Shown here one piece after another: positions 47,115 to 64,000 of a stretch of 64,000 bases of DNA. A model generated the notes under the pieces. That model searched no databases and was not told the DNA's origin. It was given only the letters and a program-made list of their open reading frames with translations. How positions within the stretch are numbered: the stretch's first letter is position 1; each line of letters starts with the position of its first letter. Both the position numbers and the translations under genes were made by a program. Source of the DNA: Chthoniobacterales bacterium (lineage in GTDB: Bacteria > Verrucomicrobiota > Verrucomicrobiia > Chthoniobacterales > DYNR01); NCBI GenBank assembly GCA_026418675.1, contig JAOAAX010000009.1, forward strand, positions 1,192 through 65,191, in the 5' to 3' direction.

Positions 47115-47235
47115 TTTTATCGCTAGAATTTAAACTAAAAAGTTTTTCTTGAAGTCAAGATCCGAAAAAAATATATTTTAAACATATTAATATCCAATCT
47201 AATAAAAAATGAACTTTTAAAAGTTAAAAATTTGT

Positions 47236-47565: not shown

Positions 47566-47688
47566 ATTTTGCCCGCACGGATGCATACTTACCCCTATAA
47601 GTTTCTAGAAAGTCAATTACTAATAATTTTTCTTTCAGCAAAATCCACCCTTGCATCCTTGGGCCTTTTTACTCTTGAATAGGCTCTG

Positions 47689-48480
47689 ATGTCCGAGGGT
47701 AGCAATTCCCCAGACCGAACTCAATCTGATGTTAATTATCCTTTTAAATCTCTTGCTCGAAAAGCTTATTGGGCTTCTGAGGACGAAGAAAAACAACTGC
47801 GCCAATACCTTCCTTTGCTCTATAGCGAGGTCAACCGAGTTGCTGCAGCTTTACCACAAAACTACGACCTCTCAGACCTTGTTAGCGCAGGTCTCGTGGG
47901 ACTTGTTCAAGCTTGGCGCCGCTTTGACCCAACTTCAGGAACTCCTTTCTTGGCTTACGCTCTCCGCAGAATTCGCGGTGCTATTCTTGACGAATTGCGA
48001 AGATCAGATTGGATGTCACGCTCAACCCGCGCTAAAGCAAAAATCATATCTGAAGCCATTCGTCAATTCGAACAAATCCATGGTCGACCTGCTTCTCCCG
48101 ATGAAATTGCAGCAGAGTTGGGCCTATCAAACGAAGACTACTCAAAACTTCTCGATGAAGTTCGCCCCATCTCTTTCGTTCAAATAGATGCCACTCCTGA
48201 AGATTCCGACCTAGATTCTCTTCACGATGTTATTCCTGATTCTAATGCAGAATCAATTCAAGAAATCCTCCAAAAAAGAGAACTCATCGAACTTATTTCT
48301 AAGAGAATACGTCAAATGCCACTTAATACGCAAAAGATTTTGGCTATGTATTACTACGAAGGTATGAAACTTGCCGAAATCGCCAAAGTCTTCGGTGTCA
48401 CTGAATCTCGAATCTGCCAAATCCATACCCACGCTATTCTAAGTCTAAGAACTTACATTCAAGCATTACTTAAGTTGTAA
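47689..48480 (+). CDS. fliA: Flagellar sigma factor FliA (sigma-28)
   Basis: Sigma-70 regions 2-4: LVSAGLVGLVQAWRRFDP, AYALRRIRGAILDELR, and the MKLAEIAKVFGVTESRICQIH region 4 HTH. Adjacent to motAB. Confidence 0.9.
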   Translation: MSEGSNSPDRTQSDVNYPFKSLARKAYWASEDEEKQLRQYLPLLYSEVNRVAAALPQNYDLSDLVSAGLVGLVQAWRRFDPTSGTPFLAYALRRIRGAILDELRRSDWMSRSTRAKAKIISEAIRQFEQIHGRPASPDEIAAELGLSNEDYSKLLDEVRPISFVQIDATPEDSDLDSLHDVIPDSNAESIQEILQKRELIELISKRIRQMPLNTQKILAMYYYEGMKLAEIAKVFGVTESRICQIHTHAILSLRTYIQALLKL

Positions 48481-48484
48481 ACTT

Positions 48485-49348
48485 ATGGTCCTCCTCTTAG
48501 GATATTTAATTGTCTTTGGTTCAGCAATGGGAGGTTTTATGCTCGCCGGTGGCAATCCGATAGTTTTGCTTCATATCTCTGAAATAGTCACAATCTGCGG
48601 AATTGGTACAGGAATACTCGTTATTGCAAGTCCACCGAGTGTTCTTGCAACATTAGTCCACCAAGTCCAAGTTGCTCTTAAAGGTTCGCCTGTCAGCAAA
48701 GACGAATTCATAGATTTGCTAAAGTTACTTTACGAACTATTCTCAAAAGCTCGCAGAGGTGGCTTAGTTGCTATCGAGGAAGACATCCTCGATCCATCGA
48801 ACAGCCCCATACTTTCTAAATATCCTTCTTTTGTAAACGATTCAGGTAAAGTTGAATTTCTCCGAAACAGCTTAAGACCTGTGATAGACGGTCGAGTCCG
48901 TCCAGAGCACCTACTGGGACTACTTGAAAATGAACTCGAAACTGTTCACGAAAGTGAAAATCAGCCAGTTCACGTATTACAACTTGTGGGCGATTCTCTC
49001 CCAGGTGTTGGTATTGTTGCGGCCGTTATGGGTATAATCAATACAATGGGCTCAGTTGCCGATGGCCCCGAAAAAGTTGGTTTAAAAGTTGCGGCTGCTT
49101 TAACTGGCACTTTCCTTGGTGTTTTCCTTGCTTACGGTTTTGTCAATCCCCTAGCTGCTCGATTAAAATCCAATAACATGCTTCATGCCTCGTATTACAT
49201 AATGATCATGAAAGCCTGTGTCAGTTTTGTTAATGGAATGGCTCCAATCATGGCTGTAGAAGTCGCGCGCCGTTGCATTCAACCAGATCTCCAACCCACC
49301 GCTGACGAACTCGAAGAAATGCTAAAATCCACAGGCTCCTCCAAATAG
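48485..49348 (+). CDS. motA: Flagellar stator protein MotA
   Basis: 287 aa with 4 TM helices, GDSLPGVGIVAAVMGII and AAALTGTFLGVFLAYGFVNPLA. Followed by motB. Confidence 0.88.
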   Translation: MVLLLGYLIVFGSAMGGFMLAGGNPIVLLHISEIVTICGIGTGILVIASPPSVLATLVHQVQVALKGSPVSKDEFIDLLKLLYELFSKARRGGLVAIEEDILDPSNSPILSKYPSFVNDSGKVEFLRNSLRPVIDGRVRPEHLLGLLENELETVHESENQPVHVLQLVGDSLPGVGIVAAVMGIINTMGSVADGPEKVGLKVAAALTGTFLGVFLAYGFVNPLAARLKSNNMLHASYYIMIMKACVSFVNGMAPIMAVEVARRCIQPDLQPTADELEEMLKSTGSSK

Positions 49349-49362
49349 CCCCATTTTATTTT

Positions 49363-50133
49363 ATGGCCAAAAAAAAACATGATGCCCATCATGGCGGTGC
49401 ATGGAAAGTGGCTTATGCTGACTTCGTAACAGCAATGATGGCACTTTTTATGGTTCTTTGGATACTATCCCAACAACCAGAAATCATTGAAGCTACTGCC
49501 CGATACTTCCAAGACCCTTATATCGCTTTTGCAAACAAAGGCTCTGGTGTTATGGACGAATTCGTCGCTGGCACAAGAAAAGAGTCATCCTCTGAAAATC
49601 CAGAAATCACTCAAAACGAAGGCTTCTTACGTGCTGTAGCTCGTGATTTTACTCGCCTCCTTAATATCAAAACTGAAGAAAATAGCCCAATCGAGGTCCA
49701 ACTCACTTCCGATGGCCTCAAAATCACTATGTATGATCGCCCAGATAAACCTTTATTTAACCCTAAAACCGCTGAACTCACCGATTGGGGTAATTTTGTC
49801 CTCCAAAACCTTGCTTGGTTAATTGAGCGATATAACTTCCGTGTATTCATTGATGGTCATACCGCAAAATGGACTGAGCAACCCGATTCCAAATATGGCC
49901 CATGGGAACTCAGTGCGGACCGAGCTAATTCGGCACGCCGTGCCCTAGAACGTTACGCAGTAAATCCCAAAAAAATCGAACGCGTAACAGGCTATGGGGA
50001 CACTTCTCCCATTCCAGGAGAAGACCCCACCTCCACTCGTAATGAACGTATCACCGTTAGCCTCTCCGCACTTCCTGACATAAATCTTGAAAACCTTGCC
50101 GAACCATTCCCAACGCCTAATCCCCAATCCTGA
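49363..50133 (+). CDS. motB: Flagellar stator protein MotB (OmpA-like C-terminal domain)
   Basis: HHGGAWKVAYADFVTAMMALFMVLW with the conserved Asp. OmpA-like domain ends in TGYGDTSPI...NERITVSL. Confidence 0.88.
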   Translation: MAKKKHDAHHGGAWKVAYADFVTAMMALFMVLWILSQQPEIIEATARYFQDPYIAFANKGSGVMDEFVAGTRKESSSENPEITQNEGFLRAVARDFTRLLNIKTEENSPIEVQLTSDGLKITMYDRPDKPLFNPKTAELTDWGNFVLQNLAWLIERYNFRVFIDGHTAKWTEQPDSKYGPWELSADRANSARRALERYAVNPKKIERVTGYGDTSPIPGEDPTSTRNERITVSLSALPDINLENLAEPFPTPNPQS

Positions 50134-50136
50134 ACC

Positions 50137-50388
50137 ATGCGCAATTTTCTCGACAATCGTCCAAAAATCCCCACACCAAACACCCAGCATTCTCAATCCA
50201 ATCCACACACACTCCCAACTCAAGGACTAAACAAAATTCTACCTTCTTCTTCTATCATTCATCAAACCGATACTTCTCACTCTGAGTTCCCTCGCATCGA
50301 ACTTTCGCAAGATTCTGAAGGCCGAATCTCCGAAATCCGCCTCCATTGCCGCTGCGGTGAAATGATTACTCTCCGTTGTATTTACTAA
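50137..50388 (+). CDS. Small hypothetical protein with a C-terminal HCRCG...C motif
   Basis: 83-aa ORF starting 4 nt after the motB stop. Disordered Pro/Thr/Ser/Gln-rich N-terminus and C-terminal RISEIRLHCRCGEMITLRCIY. No SD. Coding status uncertain because stops are rare on this G-poor strand. Confidence 0.35.
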   Translation: MRNFLDNRPKIPTPNTQHSQSNPHTLPTQGLNKILPSSSIIHQTDTSHSEFPRIELSQDSEGRISEIRLHCRCGEMITLRCIY

Positions 50389-50496
50389 TTCCCTCCAATT
50401 TCACAAGTGCAGAATCTGCAAAGGCTAGTCTAACAAACTTATAGATCATCATAAAAAACTTCCCTCTCCACCGTATAACTCCTCTTCATTTGAAAA

Positions 50497-53235
50497 TTGC
50501 CATACAAAAAAACATTTCTATTCAAAAAAACTGTTTCCCAGCTTTTACTGTTCTTTTTAGCCTCCTCCTTTCTTTCCTCAAGCTTTCCCCAATTAAACCC
50601 TCGTGATTCCTTTCCAAATCCTTCTCCTTCTCTCCTAACAGCGGCTCAAACACTTGCCGATGCCGCCCGTCAACTTCCAGATTCCCTCCAACTATCTATA
50701 CTTCGCCCAGCACTCGCCTTAACCATTCTCGAACAGTACTCCAGGATACTCCCAGATGACCCCCCCCTAACCGACATTCTTTACCTCATAAATCTTCTCT
50801 TATCCCACTCCCCAGAACCACATCTACTCCAAAACTACCTCTCAAAACTTCCTCCAGCCGACTCCATCATCTTCAATGGACATCAGCTCCTCGGCGCAGC
50901 CTTAGCACGTCCCGACAATCTCATCGGTCTCGACTCATTGCCCATCGCTCTTTCTCGTCGGATTCCCGCTCTCCTCTTTCCCCTCCGAAATGATCAAGCC
51001 CCTCTCCTCACCCAATTTGTCCAAACATCAAGTTTTTCCCTCTCAACCCTCCGCACAAGAACTCAAAACTTTTACCAAGCCCCAATAGCCGATCTCCTCT
51101 TCGCTGACGGCCTTTTTCTCCGACCCTATTCGGGAAAAATAGACGATCTATATGTCCACTTTGTTCAAAAAAATCATACTTTGCTATCCATATTATCATT
51201 TTATGCCATAGCCGAATCCCTCCCAGCAAGACGCTATTCCCCAATAACCGGCATCGGCTCTCCCCTCTCGGTCCCAACTCCTTGGTTTAATGTTAACGAC
51301 ATCCTCTCCGGTGGCGCTCTCCTTGCAGTCGAACAATACCGCTCCTCCCACCAAACCCCATCCTCCATACCAAACCCATTTTCAAACTTCGCCATCCGCA
51401 TCCTCCCTTACCTAGATTCCTCAATTAATTCCCTCCAACCAGGCTCTACTCTCACAATCTCCCGTGAGTTAATTCGACAAGCCATCCGCCACCCAAAACG
51501 TTTCTCTCCTAAACCTGTCCCGCCAATCCTTAATGACCCATCCAGATTTTTTGGATCTTATAGTCCAATTTTTCAGCTCGCTTCACGCCGCCTCTCCCGC
51601 AAAGAGCTCGCTACTGCAATCCGCCAAATTGATTTCGAAACTCCTTTACCGGACATACCAGCCACACCTTCCGCTAACGAACTCCTTGCAGAGCCAACTT
51701 CCTGGGCACCCGCCTTCTCTGAAGATGAAATCCCTCTCTTACCCCAAGAGGAAAACTCTCTTTCAGAAGAATTGGCATTTACTCCCCCTCCCCAAAACCC
51801 TTCACCTCCACCCACAAAACGCGTTGAACCCATTTACCCCGAACCCATCCTTCCTAAAACTCCAACCCAACAACCCAATCAATCTAAACCTCAAAAAAAC
51901 ATCCCTTCTCCACTACCATCCGAACCCCCACTCGTCGCAACCCTCCCAACTTTTTCTATTCAAAATCAGATAATTACATCTAATTCTGTTGGACAACATT
52001 TCTTGCCACAAACCCAAAATTCCAGCACAACGCAATCTCTAGCCGCACCTTTTTCTCTCCCCAACCCCATCTCTCAAGAAACCACTTCCAATTCAACAAA
52101 CCCCTCCCCTCCACCACCATCAACCTTGCTCGCCCAAATCCCCTCCCCCCAATCCAAAATTCCTGAATTATTGCATAGCGACAATCCTACTGCCGAGGAA
52201 ATTCCTCAACCACCCCCTATTCCTAATCCTCAGTTAACTTTACCTTCCCCGTCACCTCACCGCCTCACTCCCACTCAAAGCCCAACACCAACTCCAAACC
52301 TACCACTCTCATTACCCCAAGAGAAAGCCTCTCCATCCGAACTGCCAGCTCCTTCTTCCTTACTTGCATCCCTTTTATCCCCAACAGAACCACATAGCTC
52401 CCCCATTCACCTCTCTTTCTACCCTACCAACACACTCCTCCCACCACAGCCTTACCAAACGTCTCTTGACTTGGTCACCGCCAAAACTTCTATTCCCCTT
52501 GCTTCCCCTACTCGCCTCGAGCCCCCCTCCTCTCTCCTCCAGCCCTCCATACACCCAATCCCAGCGCAAATCCCCAAACCAGACTTTACCATAAACTCAC
52601 TCCCACCTCAACCTTCTCCACTCACCAACCTTTACTCCTCTCTAACAACAAGCAACTTCTCCGAATCACCCATTACATTCAGCTTACTCCACCCCATTTT
52701 ACTACCACAAACATCCATACCAAAACTCCCGCAGCTCGAACAAATCCTCCCCACCCTTGCCGCATCCGCCCCAACCCCCACACCTCCACAACCCAAACCA
52801 ACCAAATCCGAACCCATCCAGCTTCCAGATTTTTCCTCCGCTCCCTATGTTGCTATTGTCACCCCAACCATTGAAGCCTGTGAATCCTACACAACGGCAC
52901 TCGCTGCTAACGACCAAGCTCTCTCAACACTCCTCTCCCAACTCAACCGCACCCAACTTTACCTCCGCTGGCTCGACGCCGCTACTACACCCCTTGAGGA
53001 ATTCCTCGCTCAAAACCCCAACCTCCCTGAGTCAGTCATAGCACAAATCCATCTCGCCATTAATCTTTCCACCGACGAAATGGCTCGTCTCCTTCAACTC
53101 CGCACCGAACTCCTTAGGCAACGCCAAACCCTCCTCGCTCAGCGCCAAGCACTCCAAATCGAACTCAACTCTAACCTTCAAAAAAATCTCCACTTCCTTC
53201 AAAAAAACGCGCTCGGCTCCTCCACAGGCGCCTAA
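50497..53235 (+). CDS. Large (912 aa) secreted or membrane-anchored Pro/Ser/Leu/Thr/Gln-rich protein with a C-terminal coiled coil
   Basis: The only long ORF in any frame across 2.7 kb; minus-strand ORFs there are under 90 aa. Hydrophobic N-terminus (QLLLFFLASSFLSS), a central segment of about 400 aa that is very Pro-rich, and C-terminal heptad-like LLQLRTELLRQRQTLLAQRQALQIELN. TTG start, no SD. Confidence 0.55.
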   Translation: MPYKKTFLFKKTVSQLLLFFLASSFLSSSFPQLNPRDSFPNPSPSLLTAAQTLADAARQLPDSLQLSILRPALALTILEQYSRILPDDPPLTDILYLINLLLSHSPEPHLLQNYLSKLPPADSIIFNGHQLLGAALARPDNLIGLDSLPIALSRRIPALLFPLRNDQAPLLTQFVQTSSFSLSTLRTRTQNFYQAPIADLLFADGLFLRPYSGKIDDLYVHFVQKNHTLLSILSFYAIAESLPARRYSPITGIGSPLSVPTPWFNVNDILSGGALLAVEQYRSSHQTPSSIPNPFSNFAIRILPYLDSSINSLQPGSTLTISRELIRQAIRHPKRFSPKPVPPILNDPSRFFGSYSPIFQLASRRLSRKELATAIRQIDFETPLPDIPATPSANELLAEPTSWAPAFSEDEIPLLPQEENSLSEELAFTPPPQNPSPPPTKRVEPIYPEPILPKTPTQQPNQSKPQKNIPSPLPSEPPLVATLPTFSIQNQIITSNSVGQHFLPQTQNSSTTQSLAAPFSLPNPISQETTSNSTNPSPPPPSTLLAQIPSPQSKIPELLHSDNPTAEEIPQPPPIPNPQLTLPSPSPHRLTPTQSPTPTPNLPLSLPQEKASPSELPAPSSLLASLLSPTEPHSSPIHLSFYPTNTLLPPQPYQTSLDLVTAKTSIPLASPTRLEPPSSLLQPSIHPIPAQIPKPDFTINSLPPQPSPLTNLYSSLTTSNFSESPITFSLLHPILLPQTSIPKLPQLEQILPTLAASAPTPTPPQPKPTKSEPIQLPDFSSAPYVAIVTPTIEACESYTTALAANDQALSTLLSQLNRTQLYLRWLDAATTPLEEFLAQNPNLPESVIAQIHLAINLSTDEMARLLQLRTELLRQRQTLLAQRQALQIELNSNLQKNLHFLQKNALGSSTGA

Positions 53236-53238
53236 CAC

Positions 53239-54171
53239 TCACCGGCTCCACTCCAACATCCTCCTCAACGGCACTTCCGCCCTCCGTCTCACTTCTTCCT
53301 CCACTGTCACCTCCGGCTCCATATCCCGCAAACACAAATACAGTTTTTCGAGTGTATTTTTTTTCATAAACCGGCAGTCATTACACGCGCACGTCTCCGT
53401 CGGCCCAGCGTAGAACCTCTTGTGTGGCAACTCCTTCCTTAACCGGTGCAACATCCCAGCTTCCGTCACAACAATAAACTCCTCCGCCTCATCTTCCCGG
53501 CAAAAACTCACCATCCGCTCCGTAGAACACACCTCATCCGCAAGCAACCGAACCGCTAATGTGCACTCCGGATGCGCCACCACCTTCGCCCTGGGATGCG
53601 CTCGCTTCGCCTCCTCTATGCTCCGCTGGGTAAACTCCACATGCACATGGCAACTCCCGTTCCACAAATCCATCTTCCGCCCAGTCCGTTCCATCACCCA
53701 CGCTCCAAGATTCTGATCCGGAACAAACAATATATTCCTCCCCTCAGGCACCCGCCGCACAATCCGCTCTGCATTTCCACTTGTGCAAATCACATCACTC
53801 AAAGCCTTCACTGCCGCGCTACAATTTATATACGCCACCACGTAATAATCCTTCTCTCGATTCTCTTCCAAATACTTCGCCAAGGCACTAGCGGGACACG
53901 ATTCCGCCAGCGAACAACCAGCCTCAAGGTCCGGTATCAACACCCGTTTCCTGGGATTTATGATCTTTGCTGTTTCAGCCATAAAATGCACACCGCAAAA
54001 AACGATCACCTCGGCGTCCGTTCCCGCTGCTTGAAAACTCAAACCCAGCGAATCCCCAACAAAATCCGCCACATCCTGCAAATCCCCTGTCTGATAATTA
54101 TGGGCCAATATTACCGCCCGCCGCTCACGTCGTAACTTCTCTATTCCAGCAAGTAAGTCATTCGTTTCCAT
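53239..54171 (-). CDS. nadA: Quinolinate synthase
   Basis: AVILAHNYQTGDLQDVADFVGDSL, VFCGVHFMAETAKI and VVAHPEC motifs. Confidence 0.92.
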   Translation of the reverse strand: METNDLLAGIEKLRRERRAVILAHNYQTGDLQDVADFVGDSLGLSFQAAGTDAEVIVFCGVHFMAETAKIINPRKRVLIPDLEAGCSLAESCPASALAKYLEENREKDYYVVAYINCSAAVKALSDVICTSGNAERIVRRVPEGRNILFVPDQNLGAWVMERTGRKMDLWNGSCHVHVEFTQRSIEEAKRAHPRAKVVAHPECTLAVRLLADEVCSTERMVSFCREDEAEEFIVVTEAGMLHRLRKELPHKRFYAGPTETCACNDCRFMKKNTLEKLYLCLRDMEPEVTVEEEVRRRAEVPLRRMLEWSR

Positions 54172-54323
54172 TTCCTTACATCCTTTTTATTCTATCACTA
54201 AAACTTACAAACTTCAACCTCCGCTTCCCTCTTGTCTCACAATTTTTTAATTGATGTTCTTGAGATTCAATTGCAAATATGCCATAATCTTCCTCTATCA
54301 AACCTCTATTCCCTTTCCTCGTT

Positions 54324-54578
54324 ATGAATCCTGGCGCAAAACCCATCCAACTTTCCTCTCTTCATCCTCACATCCCAGCACGCATACACCAACTTACAGA
54401 CCAAAACCCCATCTCAAGTCGCCTCGCGGCCCTTGGTCTGCTTCCAGGCTCGATTGTTTCCATCACTCACATCGCTCCTCTTGGCGACCCCATCGCTATC
54501 CAGATTGAAAAACGCCAAATCGCTCTCCGGCGTTCCGAAGCCCAACTCCTTCTTGTTCAACCTCAACTCGATGACTAA
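54324..54578 (+). CDS. feoA: Ferrous iron transport protein A
   Basis: 84 aa with the SH3-like FeoA pattern (RLAALGLLPGSIVSITHIAPLGDPIAIQI). There is an 8-nt overlap with the feoB ATG. Confidence 0.85.
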   Translation: MNPGAKPIQLSSLHPHIPARIHQLTDQNPISSRLAALGLLPGSIVSITHIAPLGDPIAIQIEKRQIALRRSEAQLLLVQPQLDD

Positions 54579-56769
54579 CAACTCACCCATCCGCATCGCG
54601 CTCATCGGCAATCCTAACACCGGAAAATCCACACTTTTTAACCGCTTAACCGGCCTCCGCCAACACATCACCAACTACCCTGGAACAACTGTCCTTGCTC
54701 ATACAGGATTTTCTCATATTGAAGATAAACAAGTCCAATTTATTGATCTTCCAGGTATTTATTCACTCTCTGCTTCTTCACCAGACGAAAAAGTCGTTTT
54801 TGATCTCCTCCTCTGTGATAACAAAATTGACCTTATTCTCTTTATCCTCGATTCCACCAATCTCCGACGCAGCTTTTTCCTCATCTATCAGCTAGCAGAA
54901 TTTGAAATACCCTGCTTGCTTGTCCTCAATCAATGGGATCAGGCCATCCGAAATTGCATAAAAATAAACCTACAACTCCTTAAATCGCGTCTCCCCGTTC
55001 CCATAGTTACAACGATTGCCCGCAATGGCATCGGGCTTGAAGAACTCCGCTCAGCCATCGCCACCAGCCTTAAAAGCCCCTCCCGCTTTCCCCTTCCCCA
55101 GTGGCCAACCATCATTGAAGAGTGCCGTCAAACCCTCCTCAACGCCGGCGCTAATCTTTCATTGAATCTCAAGCCACCAGAAGCAACACGCATAATTTTC
55201 GATTCAGACAGCATCTATTTAAAAAACTTTTCCCCCTCCCTCCACTCTCAACTCTCGCAACTCCAATCTCAAATCCAAAATCGCCTTCGACAGAACGGCT
55301 TCAACCTTTCCATTGCAGAAGCAACTATCCATTATAGAAAAATAGACAAATTACTAGAAAATGTCATCCAATCCGACGGCACGATTGCACGCTCCGACTC
55401 ACCACTCGATTCCATCCTCCTTCACAAATTTTGGGGACCTGTGATTTTCTTCGCCATCATGTTCTTGGTCTTTCAGTCACTCTATGCCTGGTCTGCCCCA
55501 TTCACTGACGCAATCGAATCGCTTATCGCTTTAGCCAAAGACAACGTCTTTCTTTGGCTCGAAAAGTTTCCCATCCTCCAAAGCCTTACGACCGATGGCA
55601 TACTTACTGGCGTTGGCAGTGTCTTAGTTTTTCTCCCTCAAATCCTCCTCCTTTTTCTCTTCATCAGCCTCCTTGAGGAGAGCGGCTATCTTGCCCGTGC
55701 AGCCTTTATTATGGATAAGGCACTCGCTTGGTGTGGTTTGAATGGCAAATGTTTCGTCCCTCTCCTCTCGGGCTATGCCTGTTCCATACCAGCTATCCTC
55801 TCTACTCGCACACTCGACTCTCCCTCTGCCCGCCTTACCACAACTCTCCTCATCCCTTTTATGAGCTGCTCTGCTCGCCTTCCCGTTTATACGCTCTTCA
55901 TAAGTGCTTTCATTGAGCCGAAATATGGCCCAAACATTGCCGCTCTCTCCCTTTTTTTCATGCATTTCGTTGGCCCTCTTGTTGCCTTCCCGTTCGCTTG
56001 GTTCCTAAACCGTAAACTCCTTCGCACCCCGCATCAAACTTTCGTCCTCGAATTCCCTCATTATCAACTTCCTTCCCTACGCAACGTCACAACCCGCCTC
56101 TGGGAGAGCGCCCGCGATTTCCTCCAACGTGCCGGCTCCATCATCCTCGCCATCTCGATTATCCTTTGGGCTTTGCTTTACTTCCCTCGCCCTCCAGAAC
56201 TTGCTTCAAAAATTCGAAGCGAATTCCTAAAAACCCATGCGAATTCTTATCCCTCCGAACAAATCCATGCCCAACTTTCGGATCCAAACTCTCCTCTCTC
56301 CGAAAAACTCCAACACACTATTACATCTGCTTACCTTGAGCAAAGCTACCTCGGGCGCCTCGGCAAATTCCTCCAGCCCATCTTCTCGTATGCAGGCTTC
56401 GACTGGAAAATCACCATTGCCATTCTTGGAAGCTTCCCAGCCCGTGAAGTCCTCATCTCAACTCTCGGCATCATTTACAACCTTGGCGGCGACATCAGCG
56501 AAGAATCCGCCGACCTACATTCCGCTCTCTCCTCTGCTACTTGGCCCTCAGGCCCAAAAGCCGGCTACCCCATTTTTTCACTCCCTACTGTTTGGGCCAT
56601 CATGGTTTTCTTTGCGCTTTGCCTCCAATGTGGAGCTACGATCGCCGTTGTTGCCCAGGAAATCAACTGGCGTTGGGCAATCGGCCTTTTCCTCTTCATG
56701 TCCTTCTTAGCTTGGCTTGGAGCTACCCTCACTTACCAAATCCTCTCTAAAATACCTCATTTCCTCTGA
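54571..56769 (+). CDS. feoB: Ferrous iron transporter FeoB
   Basis: G-domain IALIGNPNTGKSTLFNRLTG and DLPGIYSL, then a polytopic membrane domain. ORF track begins at 54433 inside feoA; ATG at 54571 gives the canonical N-terminus. Confidence 0.92.
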   Translation: MTNNSPIRIALIGNPNTGKSTLFNRLTGLRQHITNYPGTTVLAHTGFSHIEDKQVQFIDLPGIYSLSASSPDEKVVFDLLLCDNKIDLILFILDSTNLRRSFFLIYQLAEFEIPCLLVLNQWDQAIRNCIKINLQLLKSRLPVPIVTTIARNGIGLEELRSAIATSLKSPSRFPLPQWPTIIEECRQTLLNAGANLSLNLKPPEATRIIFDSDSIYLKNFSPSLHSQLSQLQSQIQNRLRQNGFNLSIAEATIHYRKIDKLLENVIQSDGTIARSDSPLDSILLHKFWGPVIFFAIMFLVFQSLYAWSAPFTDAIESLIALAKDNVFLWLEKFPILQSLTTDGILTGVGSVLVFLPQILLLFLFISLLEESGYLARAAFIMDKALAWCGLNGKCFVPLLSGYACSIPAILSTRTLDSPSARLTTTLLIPFMSCSARLPVYTLFISAFIEPKYGPNIAALSLFFMHFVGPLVAFPFAWFLNRKLLRTPHQTFVLEFPHYQLPSLRNVTTRLWESARDFLQRAGSIILAISIILWALLYFPRPPELASKIRSEFLKTHANSYPSEQIHAQLSDPNSPLSEKLQHTITSAYLEQSYLGRLGKFLQPIFSYAGFDWKITIAILGSFPAREVLISTLGIIYNLGGDISEESADLHSALSSATWPSGPKAGYPIFSLPTVWAIMVFFALCLQCGATIAVVAQEINWRWAIGLFLFMSFLAWLGATLTYQILSKIPHFL

Positions 56770-56777
56770 TCGAAAAA

Positions 56778-57926
56778 TTAACCCTTCAGCCTCATCACCT
56801 TCCATCCCATCTTCCCTGCCATATCAAGTATCCCCTCCCTGGCTGTCGCAGCTATAACCTGACTCCCCTCAAGCAAAATCCGTAAAACTCTTTCGGTCCG
56901 TTCACCATCCAACTCTGCTATCACATCATCCATCAGCAAAATCGGACTCTGCTTGCAAACCTCAATCAAAATAGCTGCCTGCGCAAACCGTAAACCTAGC
57001 GACAAAGTTCGCTGTTGCCCTTCCGAAGCATAATCCCCTGCGCTTCTACCATTTATTAAAACCGCAAAATCATCCCGATGCGGCCCCAAGGTCGTCATCC
57101 TCAATAGCTGATCCTCCTCGTAATTTTCCCGCAATCTCTTCAATAGTTCACTACCTCCCGAGGGCAGATAATTCACCTCGACATTCTCTACCCCATCCGT
57201 TAACCAACGCACAACCTCATCCGCCCGTTCCTTCACCTTAGGCATTACCCACTGTCGGCACTCCTGCAATCGTTTCCCCAAACCCGCTAACGGCTCATCA
57301 AATGCTTCAACCTCCGCTCGCCTTGCCCCCATTCGCAACAAATAATTCCTTGATCGCAGCGCCCTCTCGTAATCCCGCAAAACCTTCAGGTAACCAGGAA
57401 ATAACTGCGAGCAGAGAAAGTCCAAATATCTCCGCCGCATTGTTCCCGAACCCCGCACCAATTCCCGATCCTCCCCGGAAAACCAAACCACCCGCCCCAA
57501 ACTCAGATACCTATCGCTATCCCTTACACAATCCCCATCAATCCACAACCGTCGCCCATCCTCCCCATTTTCGACTGCTAGTCGAACTCCCCTCTCCCAT
57601 CCCCCCTCTCCGATTTCCACAAAGTCCCCTTCCAAACAAAAATTCCTCTCTCCCCATGCCACGCACGGCCCAGGCTTTGCGCTCCGTGGCGACTGCAAGC
57701 GCAAAACCATACACACCGCCTCAAGCAAACTCGTCTTCCCCACTCCATTCCTCCCAACCACGAGGTTCAACCCTGCTCCAAACTCAAACTCCCCCTCGCG
57801 GTAACACCGAAAACTTCGTATCCCTAACCTCCGAACCTCAAATCTCTTTGCCCCTCCGTAACAAAAAACCCGGAAAGACTCCCCCTCTCTCTTATCCCCC
57901 ATATCCAAAGCAGCATCATTTCCCAC
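56778..57926 (-). CDS. recF: DNA replication and repair protein RecF
   Basis: LGIRSFRCY...LNLVVGRNGVGKTSLLEAV (Walker A), the signature SEGQQRTLSLGLRFA, and Walker B ILLMDDVIAELD. It has an N-terminal extension of about 25-33 aa compared with typical RecF. Confidence 0.88.
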   Translation of the reverse strand: MGNDAALDMGDKREGESFRVFCYGGAKRFEVRRLGIRSFRCYREGEFEFGAGLNLVVGRNGVGKTSLLEAVCMVLRLQSPRSAKPGPCVAWGERNFCLEGDFVEIGEGGWERGVRLAVENGEDGRRLWIDGDCVRDSDRYLSLGRVVWFSGEDRELVRGSGTMRRRYLDFLCSQLFPGYLKVLRDYERALRSRNYLLRMGARRAEVEAFDEPLAGLGKRLQECRQWVMPKVKERADEVVRWLTDGVENVEVNYLPSGGSELLKRLRENYEEDQLLRMTTLGPHRDDFAVLINGRSAGDYASEGQQRTLSLGLRFAQAAILIEVCKQSPILLMDDVIAELDGERTERVLRILLEGSQVIAATAREGILDMAGKMGWKVMRLKG

Positions 57927-57990
57927 TACCGAAGAACGTCACCTCCCCCAAAACTCCATCCGACCTGAAAAAACTCCCACAACTCCCACA

Positions 57991-58440
57991 TTATTTCCAC
58001 ACCTCCTCCTCCTCAAAATCGACACGATACCTCCGAAAAAACAACCTCATCTCCTCCTGAAAAGTCCGCTGCCGATGGTGTTCCTCCTGCCGAAAAATAT
58101 ACTCTGATACTTCTCGAACCTTCGACGCCGAAACCGAAAAAGCTCCATAACCCTCCTGCCACTGAAAATGGGTCATCCCATATCGCTTCCGTATCAACCC
58201 TGCTGACCGCTGTTTCAACCGCCGTATCGCTTCAACAAGACTCATTTCCCTCGACAATATAAACAAAGAATGAACGTGATCGCTCACACCGCCAGTCCGG
58301 ATGGACGGACATCCCATCTGCTCCAAAATCCGCGCCATCCCTTGGTGAAGTTCCCTCAGCCACTCCATCTGCAGGCAGGGCTCCCGCAACCTCGTCGAAA
58401 ATACTACATGCACATAGAGCTTACTTAATTCGCACCTCAC
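57991..58440 (-). CDS. IS200/IS605-family Y1 (HUH) transposase of the RAYT/COG1943 type
   Basis: LYVHVVFSTR, the HUH motif SDHVHSLF, and WQEGYGAFSVS with the catalytic Tyr region. GTG start. No partner tnpB and no obvious flanking hairpin ends. Confidence 0.82.
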   Translation of the reverse strand: MRCELSKLYVHVVFSTRLREPCLQMEWLRELHQGMARILEQMGCPSIRTGGVSDHVHSLFILSREMSLVEAIRRLKQRSAGLIRKRYGMTHFQWQEGYGAFSVSASKVREVSEYIFRQEEHHRQRTFQEEMRLFFRRYRVDFEEEEVWK

Positions 58441-58557
58441 AGTCTGATCCCAAATTATCCTCCGCCATTTTTCCCTATCTCAAGCAAATTCTCAGTCCTC
58501 TCCAATACGTCTTTCCGTCCTTTCCATTTGTTCCACTTCTCACCCACCCCTCTTTAC

Positions 58558-58591
58558 AAAAAACTGGGCCCCCTTTCTTTCGGGAGCCCAG
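58558..58591 (-). terminator. Rho-independent terminator after the Cys-rich peptide gene
   Basis: Minus strand reads CTGGGCTCCCGAAAGAAAGGGGGCCCAG (GC-rich stem) followed by TTTTTTG. Confidence 0.78.
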
Positions 58592-58635
58592 TTCGTATTT
58601 CGCTTTTTTAAACAACTAACTCCGCTGCAGGGATC

Positions 58636-58794
58636 TTATTGGCAACCAGGGCAATTCGCACAATTATCTCCGCAGCAAGTCTTGCAAGCTTTCTCCTTGC
58701 AGCATTTCGCACAGTTGGGGCCTTTATTGCCCCCCTCTGCAAAGGCTGGAACCGCTGCAAGAGCAAGTAGAATTGCAATGATTATTGATTTCAT
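58636..58794 (-). CDS. Unannotated 52-aa secreted cysteine-rich peptide (9 Cys in a predicted 33-aa mature part)
   Basis: Own translation: MKSIIIAILLALAAVPAFAEGGNKGPNCAKCCKEKACKTCCGDNCANCPGCQ. AAGGAA lies 6 nt upstream of the ATG. Sec-type signal with an AFA-E site. Its own terminator lies 44 nt downstream. Below the 60-aa cut-off of the ORF track. Confidence 0.6.
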   Translation of the reverse strand: MKSIIIAILLALAAVPAFAEGGNKGPNCAKCCKEKACKTCCGDNCANCPGCQ

Positions 58795-58865
58795 GCGGAT
58801 TTCCTTTCTTTTAAAAGTTTCCTCCTAGTTCCGGCCGAAGTAAACTCCGGCCCCGACGGCTAACT

Positions 58866-59282
58866 TCACGTCCTTACCTTCGGAGGTGGAGAGGGAGGCC
58901 GATGGCGAATTGAACTTAACCGCTCCTCTCGATTCTCTAACGCTTTCTTCCCAGTTGAATCCAATACAAGAGCATCCTCTCCACAAACAAAAACTTTTCC
59001 TACAAAACAACTCACAACACAGGGCAAACACACACATTCCCCACCCACAACTCCATCATCCTTGGAAAGATTCTTTCCCAACTCCTGCTCACAACAGCAA
59101 CCTCCATCACCTCCACAACAATACTCCACACCGACACGAACTTTTACCTCCGACTTAGTCTCAAGACACGTCCCTGCTCTCACCCAACTATTTACTACAC
59201 CAAAAATCACAACGACAATTAATTGCACAATCCACTTCCCTGTCCACAATCTTGCCTCTTTACTCTTAGGACTCACAAACAT
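58866..59282 (-). CDS. Hypothetical single-pass membrane protein with a Cys-rich domain (11 Cys)
   Basis: 138-aa ORF between the ABC ATPase gene and the Cys-rich peptide gene. TM segment WIVQLIVVVIFGVVNSWV, then EYCCGGDGGCCCEQE and ECVCLPCVVSCFVGKVFVCGE. A His-rich ORF on the opposite strand (58886..59158) competes, so coding strand and status are uncertain. Confidence 0.35.
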   Translation of the reverse strand: MFVSPKSKEARLWTGKWIVQLIVVVIFGVVNSWVRAGTCLETKSEVKVRVGVEYCCGGDGGCCCEQELGKNLSKDDGVVGGECVCLPCVVSCFVGKVFVCGEDALVLDSTGKKALENREERLSSIRHRPPSPPPKVRT

Positions 59283-59329
59283 GAAAGAGAATATACATGC
59301 ACTTTACCTAACCGCAACTCCCTCCGCCC

Positions 59330-60454
59330 TCATTCAGGATAAATTCGCTTCGACGACTCTGGATCAAATAAATACAACCGCTCCGGATTCACTTCAAAAT
59401 GCACCCGATGTCCCACCTCCCTCCGGTCCAGTTCCTCTCGACTTCTCGATACTAGCGTTACCTCTCCAATATTCATATACACCATAGACTCCGCTCCAAG
59501 CGTCTCCACAAACTCTACAGTCGCCAAAAACGTATTCTCGTTCGGCGCTTTCCCAATCCCTAACGGGCTAATATCTTCAGCCCTCATTCCCAGCAGCAAA
59601 TCACGCCCCATCCACCGACTCGCCCCATTAAAATTCGACATCGAAATCCTAAAACTATCCACATCTGCTGCTTGGAAATAAATCCTCCCCCCCTCACACC
59701 GCAAACTCCCATGCAGAAAATTCATCCCGGGCGTCCCAATAAAACCAGCCACAAACACATTCTCAGGCCGCCGATAAATCTCGATTGGTGTCCCATATTG
59801 CTGCAACTCTCCATTATGCATGACCGCGATCCGCTCCCCCATCGTCATCGCCTCCACTTGATCATGCGTCACATACACCATCGTCGCCTGCAACCGCTGA
59901 TGCAACTTCAGCAACTCTGTCCGCATCTGTGCACGCAGCTTCGCATCCAAATTCGACAGCGGCTCATCAAACAAAAATGCCTTTGGCTGCCGCACAATTG
60001 CTCGCCCTACTGCCACACGCTGGCATTGCCCTCCCGATAACGTCCCCGGTTTCCGGTCAAGAATATCCGTTATCCCCAAAATCCCGGCTGCATCCCTCAC
60101 TCGCCGGTCAATCTCACTCCGGTTCACCCCCCGCAATCGCAACCCGAAAGCCATATTCTCATATGCCGTCATATGCGGATACAACGCATAGTTTTGAAAC
60201 ACCATCGCTATATCGCGGTCCTTCGCAGGTGTCCCATTCATAACTCGCCCGCCGATCCGAATCTCCCCGGTCGTAACCTCCTCCAAACCAGCTATCAGCC
60301 GCAATGTCGTCGTCTTCCCACAGCCAGACGGTCCTAGCAAAACCACAAACTCCCTATTACAGATTTGTAAGTCCAGTTTCTTGACCGCTTCAACTCTCCG
60401 TCCGCCACTCCTTTCAAAAATCTTGCTGACTCCTACTAACTCGATCGTTGCCAT
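59330..60454 (-). CDS. Sugar-type ABC transporter ATP-binding protein (MalK/UgpC/MsmX family)
   Basis: GPSGCGKTT, LSGGQCQRVAVGRAI and FLFDEPLSNLD, plus a C-terminal regulatory (TOBE-like) domain. GAGGAG RBS. Confidence 0.92.
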   Translation of the reverse strand: MATIELVGVSKIFERSGGRRVEAVKKLDLQICNREFVVLLGPSGCGKTTTLRLIAGLEEVTTGEIRIGGRVMNGTPAKDRDIAMVFQNYALYPHMTAYENMAFGLRLRGVNRSEIDRRVRDAAGILGITDILDRKPGTLSGGQCQRVAVGRAIVRQPKAFLFDEPLSNLDAKLRAQMRTELLKLHQRLQATMVYVTHDQVEAMTMGERIAVMHNGELQQYGTPIEIYRRPENVFVAGFIGTPGMNFLHGSLRCEGGRIYFQAADVDSFRISMSNFNGASRWMGRDLLLGMRAEDISPLGIGKAPNENTFLATVEFVETLGAESMVYMNIGEVTLVSRSREELDRREVGHRVHFEVNPERLYLFDPESSKRIYPE

Positions 60455-60518
60455 AATGTATCTTCTCCTCTTTTTTTATCCCATTCGAATTCCCTTTCCA
60501 AATCTCATACCCACCTCC

Positions 60519-61361
60519 TCACCTCAGAAATGGCCGTTCAAAACCACGCACAAACGCCCCGGAAGCAATCAGAAACAATACCAACAGAGGCAAACTCGAA
60601 AACGTAAACGCTGCGGTAATAACGCCCCATCGTTTGATATACTCCCCATCCAAATAGATGAGCCTTACCCCAACAGGAAATAGTTCTGGGTCCCTCAACG
60701 CTACCAATGGAACTAAAAAATCATTCCACTGATTCACAAACACCAGCACCCCAAGCGTCGCAAGAACAGGCCAGCAAAAAGGCACCACAATCCGCCACAA
60801 CTGACTCCAATGCGATGCTCCATCTATCTCCGCAGCGTCAAAATAATCCCGCGGAATTTCCTCTATAAATCCTCGCAACACATACATACAAAAAACTTGC
60901 CCGCCAGCTATCCCCACCAAGCCAAGCCCCACCAACGAATTGAGCAATTTCAGCCGCCCAAGTACCGAAACCACCGGCACCAAATTCACTACAGCCGGAA
61001 GCAACATCAGCACAAGAAATACCCACCACAAAAAACCAGACAACGGCATCCGGTATCTTGCAAAAAAATACGCTCCCATTAACGCTAGAAAAAGCGTCCC
61101 AACAGTCACAACTCCACTCAATGCAAGACTGTTCACTACACCCGGCAGCAATATCCCCAGCGCCTCCTTGTAGTTCCTCAACGCCAAATCCCAAGAAAAA
61201 ATCGGAGACCACGGATCCTGAATAAAGAGTCGGTTGTCTTTAAAGCTCGTTTGCAACATCACCCACAAGGGAAACAACTCCATTACAAGAACCATCCATA
61301 TCGCGGCATGAATACCAACCCCCTTCCAACCACTGCTCCTTCTCCTATTTTCGTTTCGCAT
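60519..61361 (-). CDS. Carbohydrate ABC transporter permease (MalG-like)
   Basis: 6 TM helices with the EAA loop DAAEIDGASHWSQLWRIVVP. Confidence 0.9.
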   Translation of the reverse strand: MRNENRRRSSGWKGVGIHAAIWMVLVMELFPLWVMLQTSFKDNRLFIQDPWSPIFSWDLALRNYKEALGILLPGVVNSLALSGVVTVGTLFLALMGAYFFARYRMPLSGFLWWVFLVLMLLPAVVNLVPVVSVLGRLKLLNSLVGLGLVGIAGGQVFCMYVLRGFIEEIPRDYFDAAEIDGASHWSQLWRIVVPFCWPVLATLGVLVFVNQWNDFLVPLVALRDPELFPVGVRLIYLDGEYIKRWGVITAAFTFSSLPLLVLFLIASGAFVRGFERPFLR

Positions 61362-61388
61362 AATTTAAAAGATTTTTTTGTCTTTTAT

Positions 61389-62333
61389 TTACTTCTCAAT
61401 CCTCATCCATCGGTGAAACGCCCATGGAATCAAAACTATCACCCCGAACAAAATTAAACCAAGAGCACACGCATAGCCAAACCCCCCTGCCACAAACGCC
61501 CGATTGAACATCCATAGACCAGGTGTCATCCCTCGCCCGGCAGGCCCTCCCTCCTCACCCAACAACAAAAGTTGCAAACCATATCCTTGCAACGTCCCAA
61601 CAATTAGCAACACAAGCATCAGCCGAATCTGTGTCAAAAGCAACGGGAGCTCGATCAAAACAAACTTCTGCCAACCGGATGCCCCATCCAGTTCCGCCGC
61701 ATCGTAAAGCGAAGGATCAATCCGTTGCAGCCCAGCTAGAAAAACCATCACCCCAACAGCTCCAATCCACGGAAAACCAAGAAAGATTAACGACGGCAGC
61801 ACAAGCTCCGGCTGCCCCAGCCATGCTATCGGCACATCCCCAAAAAACACACCCCACCCAAAAAAGCTGTCCAGCCGAACAAGCCAACTTTTCACTCCAG
61901 TCGCATCCAAAATACGATTCAAAATCCCATAGTTCGGATCATAGAAAAACTTCCACAGAAAAAGCGTGACGAGCGTAGGCACCACCATCGGCAATACCAC
62001 CAACACCCGATACCAATACCGCCATCGTTCACTCCAAACTCGGTGGATCAAAACAGCCAAAACTACCGACGGAATTATCTTAATTACATTTGCAGCAGCC
62101 AGAACCCCCACCGTCACAAACGACCCCCAAAATACAGAATCTTCCAACGCATTCGCAAAATTTTCAAATCCCACAAACTCCCGACTCTCTTCACCAGCCC
62201 AACGAAAAAAGCTGTTATAGACCGCACTCCCAGCAGGATAGTAACAGAAAGTCCCAACTGCAACCAGCGAAGGCAAAACGAACAAATACAACCCCCATTC
62301 CCGCCATGCCCTCTTCTTACTTATTCCTCTCAT
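61389..62333 (-). CDS. Carbohydrate ABC transporter permease (MalF-like)
   Basis: EAA loop DAAELDGASGWQKFVLIELP. The likely start MRGISKK at 62333 overlaps the SBP stop by 4 nt; ORF track extends to 62384. Confidence 0.9.
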   Translation of the reverse strand: MRGISKKRAWREWGLYLFVLPSLVAVGTFCYYPAGSAVYNSFFRWAGEESREFVGFENFANALEDSVFWGSFVTVGVLAAANVIKIIPSVVLAVLIHRVWSERWRYWYRVLVVLPMVVPTLVTLFLWKFFYDPNYGILNRILDATGVKSWLVRLDSFFGWGVFFGDVPIAWLGQPELVLPSLIFLGFPWIGAVGVMVFLAGLQRIDPSLYDAAELDGASGWQKFVLIELPLLLTQIRLMLVLLIVGTLQGYGLQLLLLGEEGGPAGRGMTPGLWMFNRAFVAGGFGYACALGLILFGVIVLIPWAFHRWMRIEK

Positions 62334-64000
62334 CTTCCACGCTCTACACCAAATCCCAACCCCACATCCCTTCGCCCAACCCATATCCCCCTCTCCTTCG
62401 TAGTCTCACCTCCCCTTCGATTTTCCTGTCCCTCCCGCAACTTCAATCCACTCACTCCTCTCCTGCCATCTGATCCTCCACTAAGGAATTCCTCTTCCCC
62501 GCCAAATCCAGCAGCTCTCTGCTTCCGAAGCAGCACATTTACCGACCGCAAAACCTCCCCTTGCAATGCCTTCAGTCGGTATTGCATCCCAAGCCCTGCA
62601 ATCATCCGATCCATCTTCTCTTCAAACTCTTTATTATTCGGGTCAAGCTTACTCAGCATCCACATCCCACCAAGCTGGATTTCCGTCCTCCAAATCGGAA
62701 TCTCCCGCGAACGAATTCCTCGACGGGCGTCCGTCGCATATCCTTGCAGCAACGGCAATCGAAGCGAATCCGCATATCTTTCCACGCTCCCATCCGGTTC
62801 TATCAAATAATGCAAATTTGTGCTTACTGCTCGAATCGCATCCGGCTGCGCCCGATCCGCAAGAAAAAAACCCTGGGTGTATCCTTCCGGCCGCATTTCA
62901 AACCCCTCAACCAATGGATCGGCCTTCACACCACGCACTGACGGCAACATCTTACTCCTCTCTGCAAAAACTTGATTCCCAAATCGACTCGCCGCAAACT
63001 GTAAAAAATCCACTGCAACCTTCGGATTCCGACTACCACGCGTAACCCCTAGGCTTAGTCCCCCTATTAAACCTGCCTCCGACAATTGCCCAAGCGCATA
63101 TTCCCCAAATCGCCCCTCACCAGCCTCTGGAAACGGTAAATCCATCACTCCAATTGCAAACCCAGCCTGCTCCCTCAAACTCGCCGCATCCCAGCTCCCA
63201 GTCGCTAAAAACAGCGCTCGCCCCTGCAAAAATTGGAACGTGGCGTCCTCTCGTGTAAGCTGAAGAAAGCCAGTTGGATAAACACGCCCAATCCGTTGCA
63301 TCAGCTCCATCCCTCTCGATACAGGTTCAGCTTCCAAACTCCATTTCCCTCGTGCATACAGCAGCGTCGTCAGCCAAGCATGCGCTTGCATATACCCAGG
63401 GGGATAAATCTCCCGCAAATACCGTTGCGTCTGACTCCCAAACAGCCAAAGCATGAAATTCACCGCGTAGCTACGCGAAAGCACAATCGGCAAAATCCTC
63501 TCCCCATCCACAACCCCCTCCCTCCGCAATCGCTCACACACCTCCAAAAAAACCTCAAATTTTTCCGGAAGTTCCCGTCTCCCTGTCACCCGCTCTAGCA
63601 AATCCAGATTCACCATCAACCGATTCGTAAAAGCAGAGAGCGGAACAGCGTAGTATTCACTCAATAGCGGATTAAATCCACCCAGCATCCTGTCAAAAAA
63701 CGTATCCTTGAATGCCACTCCTTCCAGCTCCGTCCCAACGTTGTAAGGATTCGGCCTGCCCGCTATCTCCCCCAGCGGCACAAAATACCGTGCCAAAACT
63801 TCTGGTGTCGTTCCAAGTCCAATCTCCACAATGTCCGGCGAATCCCCACCGAGCAACCGCGCCGTCAACCACTGCCGAAAAATTTTCTCCGGTATCGGAA
63901 TCTGAACAATTTGCACTCCAGGATTCCGCCTCTCATACTCCCTCGCTACCGCTTCAAATGCTTCACGCATCCCGGCTTCTAACTGCCAATGCGCCACCCG
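62330..64000 (-). CDS. ABC transporter extracellular solute-binding protein (family 1); N-terminus beyond the window end; Gly/Arg/Glu-rich C-terminal tail
   Basis: FEAVAREYERRNPGVQIVQIPIPEK... is typical of the SBP_bac_1 N-lobe. No signal peptide is in the window and the frame is open to 64000. First gene of the permease/ATPase operon. Confidence 0.78.
   Translation of the reverse strand, partial: RVAHWQLEAGMREAFEAVAREYERRNPGVQIVQIPIPEKIFRQWLTARLLGGDSPDIVEIGLGTTPEVLARYFVPLGEIAGRPNPYNVGTELEGVAFKDTFFDRMLGGFNPLLSEYYAVPLSAFTNRLMVNLDLLERVTGRRELPEKFEVFLEVCERLRREGVVDGERILPIVLSRSYAVNFMLWLFGSQTQRYLREIYPPGYMQAHAWLTTLLYARGKWSLEAEPVSRGMELMQRIGRVYPTGFLQLTREDATFQFLQGRALFLATGSWDAASLREQAGFAIGVMDLPFPEAGEGRFGEYALGQLSEAGLIGGLSLGVTRGSRNPKVAVDFLQFAASRFGNQVFAERSKMLPSVRGVKADPLVEGFEMRPEGYTQGFFLADRAQPDAIRAVSTNLHYLIEPDGSVERYADSLRLPLLQGYATDARRGIRSREIPIWRTEIQLGGMWMLSKLDPNNKEFEEKMDRMIAGLGMQYRLKALQGEVLRSVNVLLRKQRAAGFGGEEEFLSGGSDGRRGVSGLKLREGQENRRGGETTKERGIWVGRRDVGLGFGVERGR

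Follow-up and report, generated by a model that had tools for sequence, protein, structure and literature searches.

Why should the plus strand of an ordinary core chromosome become starved of G within the coding sequence of a single flagellar gene, and stay so for the next 14 kb? The locus is a 64,000-nt window (the whole stretch of DNA that was analysed; coordinates below are positions in it, and skew is plus-strand GC skew unless stated) of the 70,909-bp contig JAOAAX010000009.1, with proteins MCX7712963-MCX7713012, from a Chthoniobacterales metagenome-assembled genome (MAG; GCA_026418675.1), in which motB spans the step, the DNA to the left of about 50 kb (the left block) is weakly skewed as a whole, and the DNA to the right (the block) is extremely skewed as far as the window end. 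The answer preferred here, tentatively and at somewhat less than even odds, is that strand asymmetry of the replication type takes an extreme form here, undiluted in the block but diluted in the DNA to its left.

The step itself is large and well placed. In 1-kb windows, skew ranges from -0.34 to +0.21 over 1-50 kb and from -0.32 to -0.70 in every window of 50-64 kb; taken as wholes, 1-49,980 has a skew of -0.057 at 41.8% GC and 49,981-64,000 a skew of -0.456 (~-0.46) at 49.7% GC. A likelihood change-point test of G versus C in the raw sequence gave a maximum-likelihood position of 50,025 (2-unit support interval 49,992-50,069), and in a change-point analysis C frequency rose from 0.226 to 0.368 at about 50,001. 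The abrupt and strong C>G onset near 50 kb, held to the window end, that had been described in an earlier sequence-only reading was thus borne out by both the 1-kb profile and the change-point test, as was its count of 28 C and 1 G at 50161-50220; the GC content of 50-63% that it gave for the block held at the lower end (50-53% per kb), but 63% is not reached over any long stretch. In a comparison set of 146 loci of at least 10 kb from other bacteria, the maximum whole-locus |skew| was 0.293 and the median 0.037, which confirms that the 0.456 of the block lies far outside the range of comparable loci. The compositional features are as follows, C4 being C frequency at four-fold sites:

50000..64000, no strand: extreme-skew domain, running to the window end; plus strand C 0.362, G 0.135, A 0.263, T 0.240
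49992..50069, no strand: raw G-versus-C change point, within the codons for the C-terminal part of the MotB OmpA-like domain
49100..50700, no strand: four-fold-site transition zone; C4 0.34 on both sides of 49,996, 0.24 further left and 0.47 further right
42500..49995, no strand: approach zone; third-position plus-strand G 0.08-0.11 in both orientations, skew -0.35 to -0.44, C low at 0.20-0.24

Within the block, the bias follows the DNA strand and not the gene. Third-codon-position skew, in plus-strand sense, is -0.63 to -0.76 in plus- and minus-strand genes alike, and four-fold sites are A.21, C.46, G.04, T.30 in plus-strand genes and, again in plus-strand sense, A.22, C.53, G.06, T.20 in minus-strand genes; pooled, they contain C 0.49 and G 0.05, a skew of about -0.82. 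Intergenic skew is -0.45 in the block versus -0.09 in the left block. The skew is strongest at synonymous sites and smaller at codon positions 1 and 2 (mostly -0.1 to -0.5; position 2 of the compositionally unusual orf912 has -0.72), and at third positions it is flat over 14 kb (-0.76, -0.67, -0.73, -0.73). A and T are near equal at four-fold sites (.21,.25), and whole-sequence AT skew per kb is -0.15 to +0.30. Seven of the 11 block genes lie on the G-rich minus strand (8/12 with a candidate ORF, orf138, at 58,866-59,282), in only about 5-6 transcription units. That the bias is a property of the DNA strand rather than of transcription or codon choice, as originally proposed, therefore stands on the agreement, in sign and in size, between four-fold sites of genes in either orientation and intergenic DNA, and the absence of a sign inversion at the site agrees with the accompanying claim that no simple origin or terminus is located there. 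A reported contrast in Shine-Dalgarno sequences was found in the window (upstream of 0/4 plus-strand block genes vs 3/6 minus-strand ones with upstream sequence inside the window) but is weak, only 6/50 genes of the left block having such a motif (GGAG, GAGG or AGGA, 4-20 nt ahead of the start codon); a minus strand rich in G could by itself generate it, and from these motif counts the organism seems to rely little on Shine-Dalgarno pairing.

The skew does not begin at zero. Pooled by orientation and in plus-strand sense, the third-position strand effect is about -0.3 at 1-10 kb, about -0.1 at 10-21 kb, about +0.1 at 21-32 kb, -0.15 at 32-42 kb, -0.40 at 42-50 kb and -0.7 at 50-64 kb; between 40.0 and 49.4 kb, intergenic DNA has a skew of -0.30. 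Third-position G on the plus strand falls gradually toward the junction, from 0.20 to 0.14 to 0.09, and is 0.05-0.10 past it, so that it is continuous; C at third positions alone jumps, from 0.20-0.24 to 0.39-0.50. The bias had been said to switch on from zero, which has to be replaced by an amplitude step at third positions from about -0.4 to about -0.7, almost wholly in plus-strand C, and the near equality of C and G upstream is roughly correct overall but not over 42-50 kb, where genes of either orientation already have a third-position skew of -0.35 to -0.44. With the four-fold sites of plus-strand genes alone, the change point could only be localised to 49.1-50.7 kb; the intermediate-C4 contrasts on either side of 49,996 are post hoc (p about 0.01 on each side), and a two-step model at four-fold sites gave no significant gain over a one-step model (bootstrap p = 0.115).

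The left 50 kb are ordinary core chromosome, encoding Ogg, G6PD, a ClpX-like ATPase, ProRS, flagellin, CinA, GlmS and PFK, among others. A weakly positive third-position effect is confined, within the window, to 21,000-32,000 (+0.07 to +0.17, in both orientations), so that the left block is itself a mosaic and not uniformly unskewed. The 8-oxoguanine DNA glycosylase (Ogg-type) gene at 1342-2241 (+) is relevant to any account of the bias by guanine oxidation, and about 1.1 kb at 9592-10705 has no open reading frame (ORF) of at least 100 aa in the gene map and no Rfam or tRNA match.

The bias has lasted long enough to reach the proteins. The ORFs of the block are real, intact genes with Pfam matches from end to end (NadA E = 1e-117):

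49363..50133, plus: motB, with MotB_plug and OmpA domains; crosses the boundary, with orthology to relatives on either side
50137..50388, plus: orf83, a small conserved gene, co-operonic with motB in relatives
50497..53235, plus: orf912, conserved and uncharacterised, flagellar operon
53239..54171, minus: nadA (quinolinate synthase); four-fold sites, plus-strand sense, C.62, G.06
54324-54578, plus: feoA; feoAB four-fold sites C.37-.48, G.05-.08
54571 (probable ATG) to 56769, plus: feoB; four-fold sites as for feoA
56778..57926, minus: recF (NCBI model 374 aa)
57991..58440, minus: IS200/IS605-family Y1 transposase gene, identical in a second MAG; a different gene occupies this place in a sister species
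59330-60454, minus: ugpC, of an ABC sugar-type transporter operon (59330..63997; four-fold sites C.47-.61, G.04-.07 throughout)
60519-61361 and 61389-62384, minus: permeases of the same operon
62330-63997, minus: binding protein of the same operon

Proteins encoded on the plus strand of the block contain 3.0-4.6% Gly, 2.3-3.0% Val and 6.8-10.9% Pro, and those on the minus strand 9.5% Gly, 8.6% Val and 3.9% Pro; left-block proteins show no difference by strand. These percentages verify the strand-dependent amino-acid composition noted for the block beforehand. When the amino acids with C-rich codons (PSTLQH) and G-rich codons (GAVDE) are summed, orf83 has 49% and 13% vs 35-40% and 29-33% in its orthologues, and the N-terminal 400 aa of orf912 have 51.5% and 19.5% with 2.8% Gly, vs 32-36%, 34-38% and 7-8% in orthologues. 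RecF contains 11.5% Gly, 8.1% Val and 2.4% Pro vs 7.8, 3.9 and 4.7 in outgroups. In orf83, orf912, FeoB, RecF and UgpC, both codon positions 1+2 and the protein itself have a composition shifted away from that of the orthologues; MotA and residues 1-212 of MotB are unshifted, and FliA shows a mild shift (GAVDE z = -3.8) that is confounded by the low GC of the species. Intact genes with shifted proteins indicate long-term pressure under purifying selection and not a burst of hypermutation. Two simpler accounts were rejected: the step is not a by-product of intrinsically Pro/Ser/Thr-rich proteins, since the orthologues of orf83 and orf912 are not so composed, and faster evolution of the block is unsupported, RecF of the window and of the sister species being equidistant from nine outgroups in a relative-rate test. 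Beside the Y1 transposase gene, a 425-nt spacer (58441-58865) contains a GC-rich hairpin (58562-58593) and has a skew of -0.29, weaker than its surroundings.

The boundary lies inside a conserved flagellar operon. By tblastn against fetched loci, the order fliA-motA-motB-orf83-orf912 is kept in more than 30 relatives, which answers the suggestion that the synteny of motB with its downstream genes be checked; three of these loci have a long flagellar operon in which the homologues of orf83 and orf912 each overlap the stop codon before them:

L133, 10750-13214: orf83-orf912 homologues
L134, 10753-13622: orf83-orf912 homologues
L138, 10705-13718: orf83-orf912 homologues

MotB reads as a single orthologous protein over the junction, with the motif GYGD...RNERITVSLSA conserved; relative to L133, 19/24 residues are identical past the junction, with about 73% identity ahead of it. 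Since the boundary lies within an orthologous gene and a conserved operon, an insertion, inversion or translocation breakpoint at 50 kb is ruled out. The nearest relatives are the same for both sides of the junction, all of them Verrucomicrobiota: MotA and MotB have their nearest relatives among uncultured Verrucomicrobiia and Chthoniobacterales/Terrimicrobiaceae (nearest 70-75%, Terrimicrobiaceae about 62%), and the named matches of RecF are Chthoniobacterales. A recently acquired or translocated segment, one of the candidates first offered, does not fit a boundary inside motB with core genes of the same Chthoniobacterales affinity on both sides. A transition from opposite skew after an inversion was likewise rejected, synteny being unbroken at the boundary and codon positions 1+2 of the left block retaining no fossil of opposite sign. 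No meaningful repeats were found in a repeat scan of 49.5-50.7 kb, and none common to the two blocks; Rfam and tRNA scans gave no match at the boundary, the only tRNA of the window being at 19.45 kb.

Two observations concern the operon itself. A true synteny break relative to other species occurs at about 47.2 kb (47,100-47,250), 2-3 kb to the left of the compositional boundary, where flhA and the upstream flagellar export genes that precede fliA elsewhere are replaced by a GGDEF response regulator gene on the opposite strand (45864-47114), so that the flagellar operon is split in this species. Also, in many Chthoniobacterales/Verrucomicrobiia relatives orf83 and orf912 are conserved where the flagellar operon ends, in translational coupling with motB; neither has a Pfam match, and from their gene context they may be uncharacterised flagellar or motor-associated proteins.

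Both types of DNA were recovered together a second time. GCA_025055915.1 (proteins MCS70...), a MAG that was submitted separately, has near-identical pieces of both blocks, including a 1,562-bp contig that is 99.55% identical to 57,023-58,586 and has the same skew; proteins of this MAG match on the block side (UgpC, 373/374 residues; a fragment of the fast-evolving orf912, 98.5%) and on the left side (G6PD, 511/511; GlmS, 576/576). The two block types have thus been binned together twice, at 98.5-100% protein identity. The orf912 fragment of the second MAG begins about 785 nt to the right of the junction, and a NadA-based scan of JGI metagenomes yielded nothing closer than 68%.

This recovery bears on the possibility of a chimeric assembly, in which two Chthoniobacterales populations, one of weak skew and 42% GC and one of extreme skew and 50% GC, were joined at homologous positions of motB. 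That the source is a MAG, that the junction was never independently recovered in the assemblies searched, and that the dinucleotide delta between the block and left chunks (0.08-0.11) exceeds that among left chunks (0.02-0.05; other genera 0.13-0.20) are all compatible with such a join. It would need, however, a long exact word shared by sequences that are very different at neutral sites, and it sits poorly with a MotB that reads as one orthologous protein through the junction, with nearest relatives that are the same on both sides, with a G depletion that is continuous across it, and with the presence of both block types in an independently binned MAG; moreover, another assembler working on another species also produced an extreme-to-weak contig at this locus. 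The chimeric join raised by the sequence-only reading is consequently less likely in view of the second MAG and the continuous G depletion, even with the junction in no other assembly searched, and is here considered quite improbable.

The other species is a sister species represented in Logan assemblies of runs SRR27730019, SRR27730038 and SRR27730048, whose contig (L132) has the same order as the window, binding protein-permeases-ugpC-x-recF-feoBA-nadA-orf912, with an unrelated 238-aa gene (x) at the position of the transposase; a second Logan nadA contig gave no extension of L132. The sister nadA (92% protein identity) and orf912 are extremely skewed (nadA four-fold G.73, C.05); across feoA and feoB the skew fades, and from recF on it is weak or opposite, with RecF and UgpC proteins shifted opposite to those of the window. 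The sister pfk encodes a protein 93.6% identical to that of the weakly skewed left-block pfk, yet has four-fold C.79, G.02 and 62% GC. Both species therefore carry the same kind of extreme domain, at partly different places, and in both the GC content at four-fold sites (GC4) of extreme domains is roughly 0.15-0.35 above that of weak domains. Four-fold sites are saturated in every comparison of the two species (26-39% identity at conserved four-fold sites; nucleotide identity 66-77%). The idea that NadA, at 92%, marks a recently exchanged segment was dropped, PFK of the unskewed left block being 93.6% identical and four-fold sites saturated everywhere.

Beyond these two species, 46 relatives span -0.85 to +0.53 in motA four-fold skew and whole-locus skews in relatives reach about ±0.3 in either sign, so that very strong strand asymmetry characterises the order as a whole. 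On a Terrimicrobiaceae MAG contig (L114, JAGYIV010000010.1), whole-sequence skew is -0.3 to -0.46 over the flagellar operon and shrinks to about 0 in the space of some 2 kb at about 16,000; a relative may thus show a further domain edge here, although the skewed part has all of its genes on one strand.

The existence of relatives with the same gene order and different skew states opens another route to the boundary, homologous replacement, by which one side would have been imported from a related lineage in the other skew state, with a crossover in motB that preserved frame and gene order. Such an event would account for a boundary within a conserved gene with synteny intact, and for the abrupt protein shift at orf83 with MotA and MotB unshifted. 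Nonetheless, 66-77% nucleotide identity with saturated neutral sites is far below what homologous recombination normally tolerates, G depletion builds toward the junction and is continuous over it, and four-fold C seems intermediate on both sides of 49,996; the donor, moreover, must still have had the extreme regime. Replacement is accordingly regarded as unlikely.

The same comparisons bear on a local strand-specific process unrelated to fork direction, such as repeated one-sided single-strand exposure from a fixed nick or break near 50 kb (by resection or strand displacement) or persistent R-loops. A sharp onset is followed by an effect that is one-directional and long-range, sign inversion is absent at the boundary, and the extent differs in the sister species, with skew decaying through feoAB, all as such a process might produce; but the skew does not decay over 14 kb, the boundary shows no nick-site, relaxase or repeat feature, a single transcription unit is ruled out by the presence of genes on both strands, and the extreme skew of the sister pfk, far from this site, indicates a genome-wide regime. 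A purely local cause is given a slim chance. Of the options first put forward, a localised strand-specific mutational process nevertheless comes closest, except that strong skew is order-wide and extreme skew occurs at other loci of the sister; these two findings suggest that the undiluted state may be the one seen in the block, and the diluted state that of the left flank.

Under the preferred reading, in which the block is authentic, contiguous chromosomal DNA with an undiluted replication-type asymmetry, a strong mutational process would strip C from the minus strand, which is equivalent to G loss on the plus strand. To the right of about 50 kb only the minus strand would have been hit, over a very long time, and G:C pairs with the C on the plus strand would have been spared and accumulated, giving a G-starved, C-rich plus strand, higher GC and strand-dependent proteins. 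To the left of about 50 kb both strands would have been hit, in alternation or after a change of direction, so that neutral-site GC would fall and skew be diluted, the dilution lessening toward the boundary. The likely cause would be that the block has always been replicated in one direction and the left region in both over evolutionary time, for example in a fork-meeting zone bounded by a fixed arrest point or through a shift in the site at which forks meet; both the tie to fork direction and the nature of the boundary are what we infer here.

The feasibility of this scheme was explored with a toy model, in which a single strand-specific G-destroying process was fitted to the four-fold composition of the block, with a baseline of the roughly 60-70% GC4 of relatives, and mixed between strands. 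At about 60:40 the model gave GC4 of 0.27-0.38 and a skew of -0.16, vs 0.33 and -0.18 observed in the left block, and at 80:20 it gave C of about.25-.32 and G of about.08-.11, as observed at 42-50 kb. Only C would jump at the boundary because G in the model is already near its floor once one strand bears the process most of the time, and C would be freed only when the complementary process reaches zero. The higher GC4 of extreme domains in both species is also what the model predicts.

Several points weigh against replication as the cause. The toy model indicates feasibility and not proof, having as many free parameters as constraints. Scans of the window found no origin-like DnaA-box cluster and no dif-like site, and the near-zero AT skew departs from the classical signature of deamination. 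The profile of the left block is non-monotonic (about -0.3 at 1-10, +0.1 at 21-32 and -0.4 at 42-50 kb), which a simple terminus zone would not produce. The protein-level shift starts sharply at orf83, so the boundary must be long fixed, and we know of no mechanism in Verrucomicrobia for a boundary of this kind. The sister switch at feoB|recF is opposite in polarity to the step here, and a single-origin chromosome cannot have both at one locus without further rearrangements. Finally, the junction was recovered in no independent assembly (exact 50-mer against genome contigs; 24-mer against metagenome contigs).

A bolder and rather doubtful extension is that mutational asymmetry in this lineage has the strength of that in animal mitochondria, and that the chromosome is divided into stable "pure" and "mixed" strand-exposure domains whose edges are long fixed (here inside motB) and differ between sister species. 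If true, this would point to an unrecognised site-specific polar replication-fork barrier, to multi-site initiation and termination in Verrucomicrobia, or to a new mutagenic mechanism that is strand-specific and locally targeted. Provided that the contig is correct, a bacterial chromosome segment has a mitochondrion-like strand bias, with a four-fold GC skew of -0.82, able to push housekeeping proteins toward Pro/Ser/Thr/Leu or Gly/Val/Arg/Glu by coding strand alone, and one operon holds this block next to DNA with the same bias diluted. Two mutational regimes on one genetic background, swapped between loci in sister species, amount to a natural experiment that could serve to study strand-specific mutation spectra, neutral GC as a function of strand exposure, and the tolerance of proteins to compositional pressure. 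Such domains can also mislead composition-based binning, the detection of horizontal transfer, and skew-based origin prediction in Verrucomicrobia MAGs.

Among known systems, a horizontally acquired genomic island resembles the block in that GC and composition change abruptly. Unlike an island, the block consists of core genes in conserved order, with the fliA-orf912 order found in more than 30 relatives and orf912-nadA-feoAB-recF-ugpC-permeases-binding protein common to the sister species; its edge falls inside an operon and inside one of its genes, and lacks a tRNA, an integrase and flanking repeats; and its anomaly is a strand asymmetry rather than a symmetric shift in composition.

Terminus-proximal regions of bacterial chromosomes show AT-enrichment and weakened skew, and a structuring of GC at third codon positions (GC3) along bacterial chromosomes was reportedly described by Daubin and Perriere in 2003. 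The weak-skew left flank is similar in its lower GC3, as if the strands alternated as the vulnerable one; it differs in a far larger GC3 gap (0.35 vs 0.55), a sharp edge, and the lack of terminus markers among those looked for in the window.

Bacterial GC skew is an asymmetry of leading vs lagging strand that is tied to replication and that yields strand-dependent proteomes in Borrelia burgdorferi; Lobry is said to have described replication-associated GC skew of bacterial chromosomes in 1996. In a survey of 1111 genomes, Fusobacteria and Firmicutes were the most biased phyla and cultured Verrucomicrobia had a low mean composition-bias score (PMC4613354). As in replication-associated skew, the bias of the block is bound to the strand whatever the gene orientation, is strongest at synonymous sites and reaches the amino acids. 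It departs from such skew in magnitude (-0.46 overall, -0.82 at four-fold sites), in an amplitude that steps without a change of sign, in the accompanying change of GC content, and in an AT skew near zero.

Animal mitochondrial DNA also has a strong strand asymmetry (reviewed in PMC3269012), its light strand being G-starved. In mitochondria AT skew is strong as well, and a gradient follows the time spent single-stranded. Neutral-site GC skew in the block is of similar size, and there, too, protein composition tracks the strand; unlike the mitochondrial pattern, however, that of the block has an AT skew of about 0 and a profile that is flat over 14 kb, and it resides on a bacterial chromosome among housekeeping genes.

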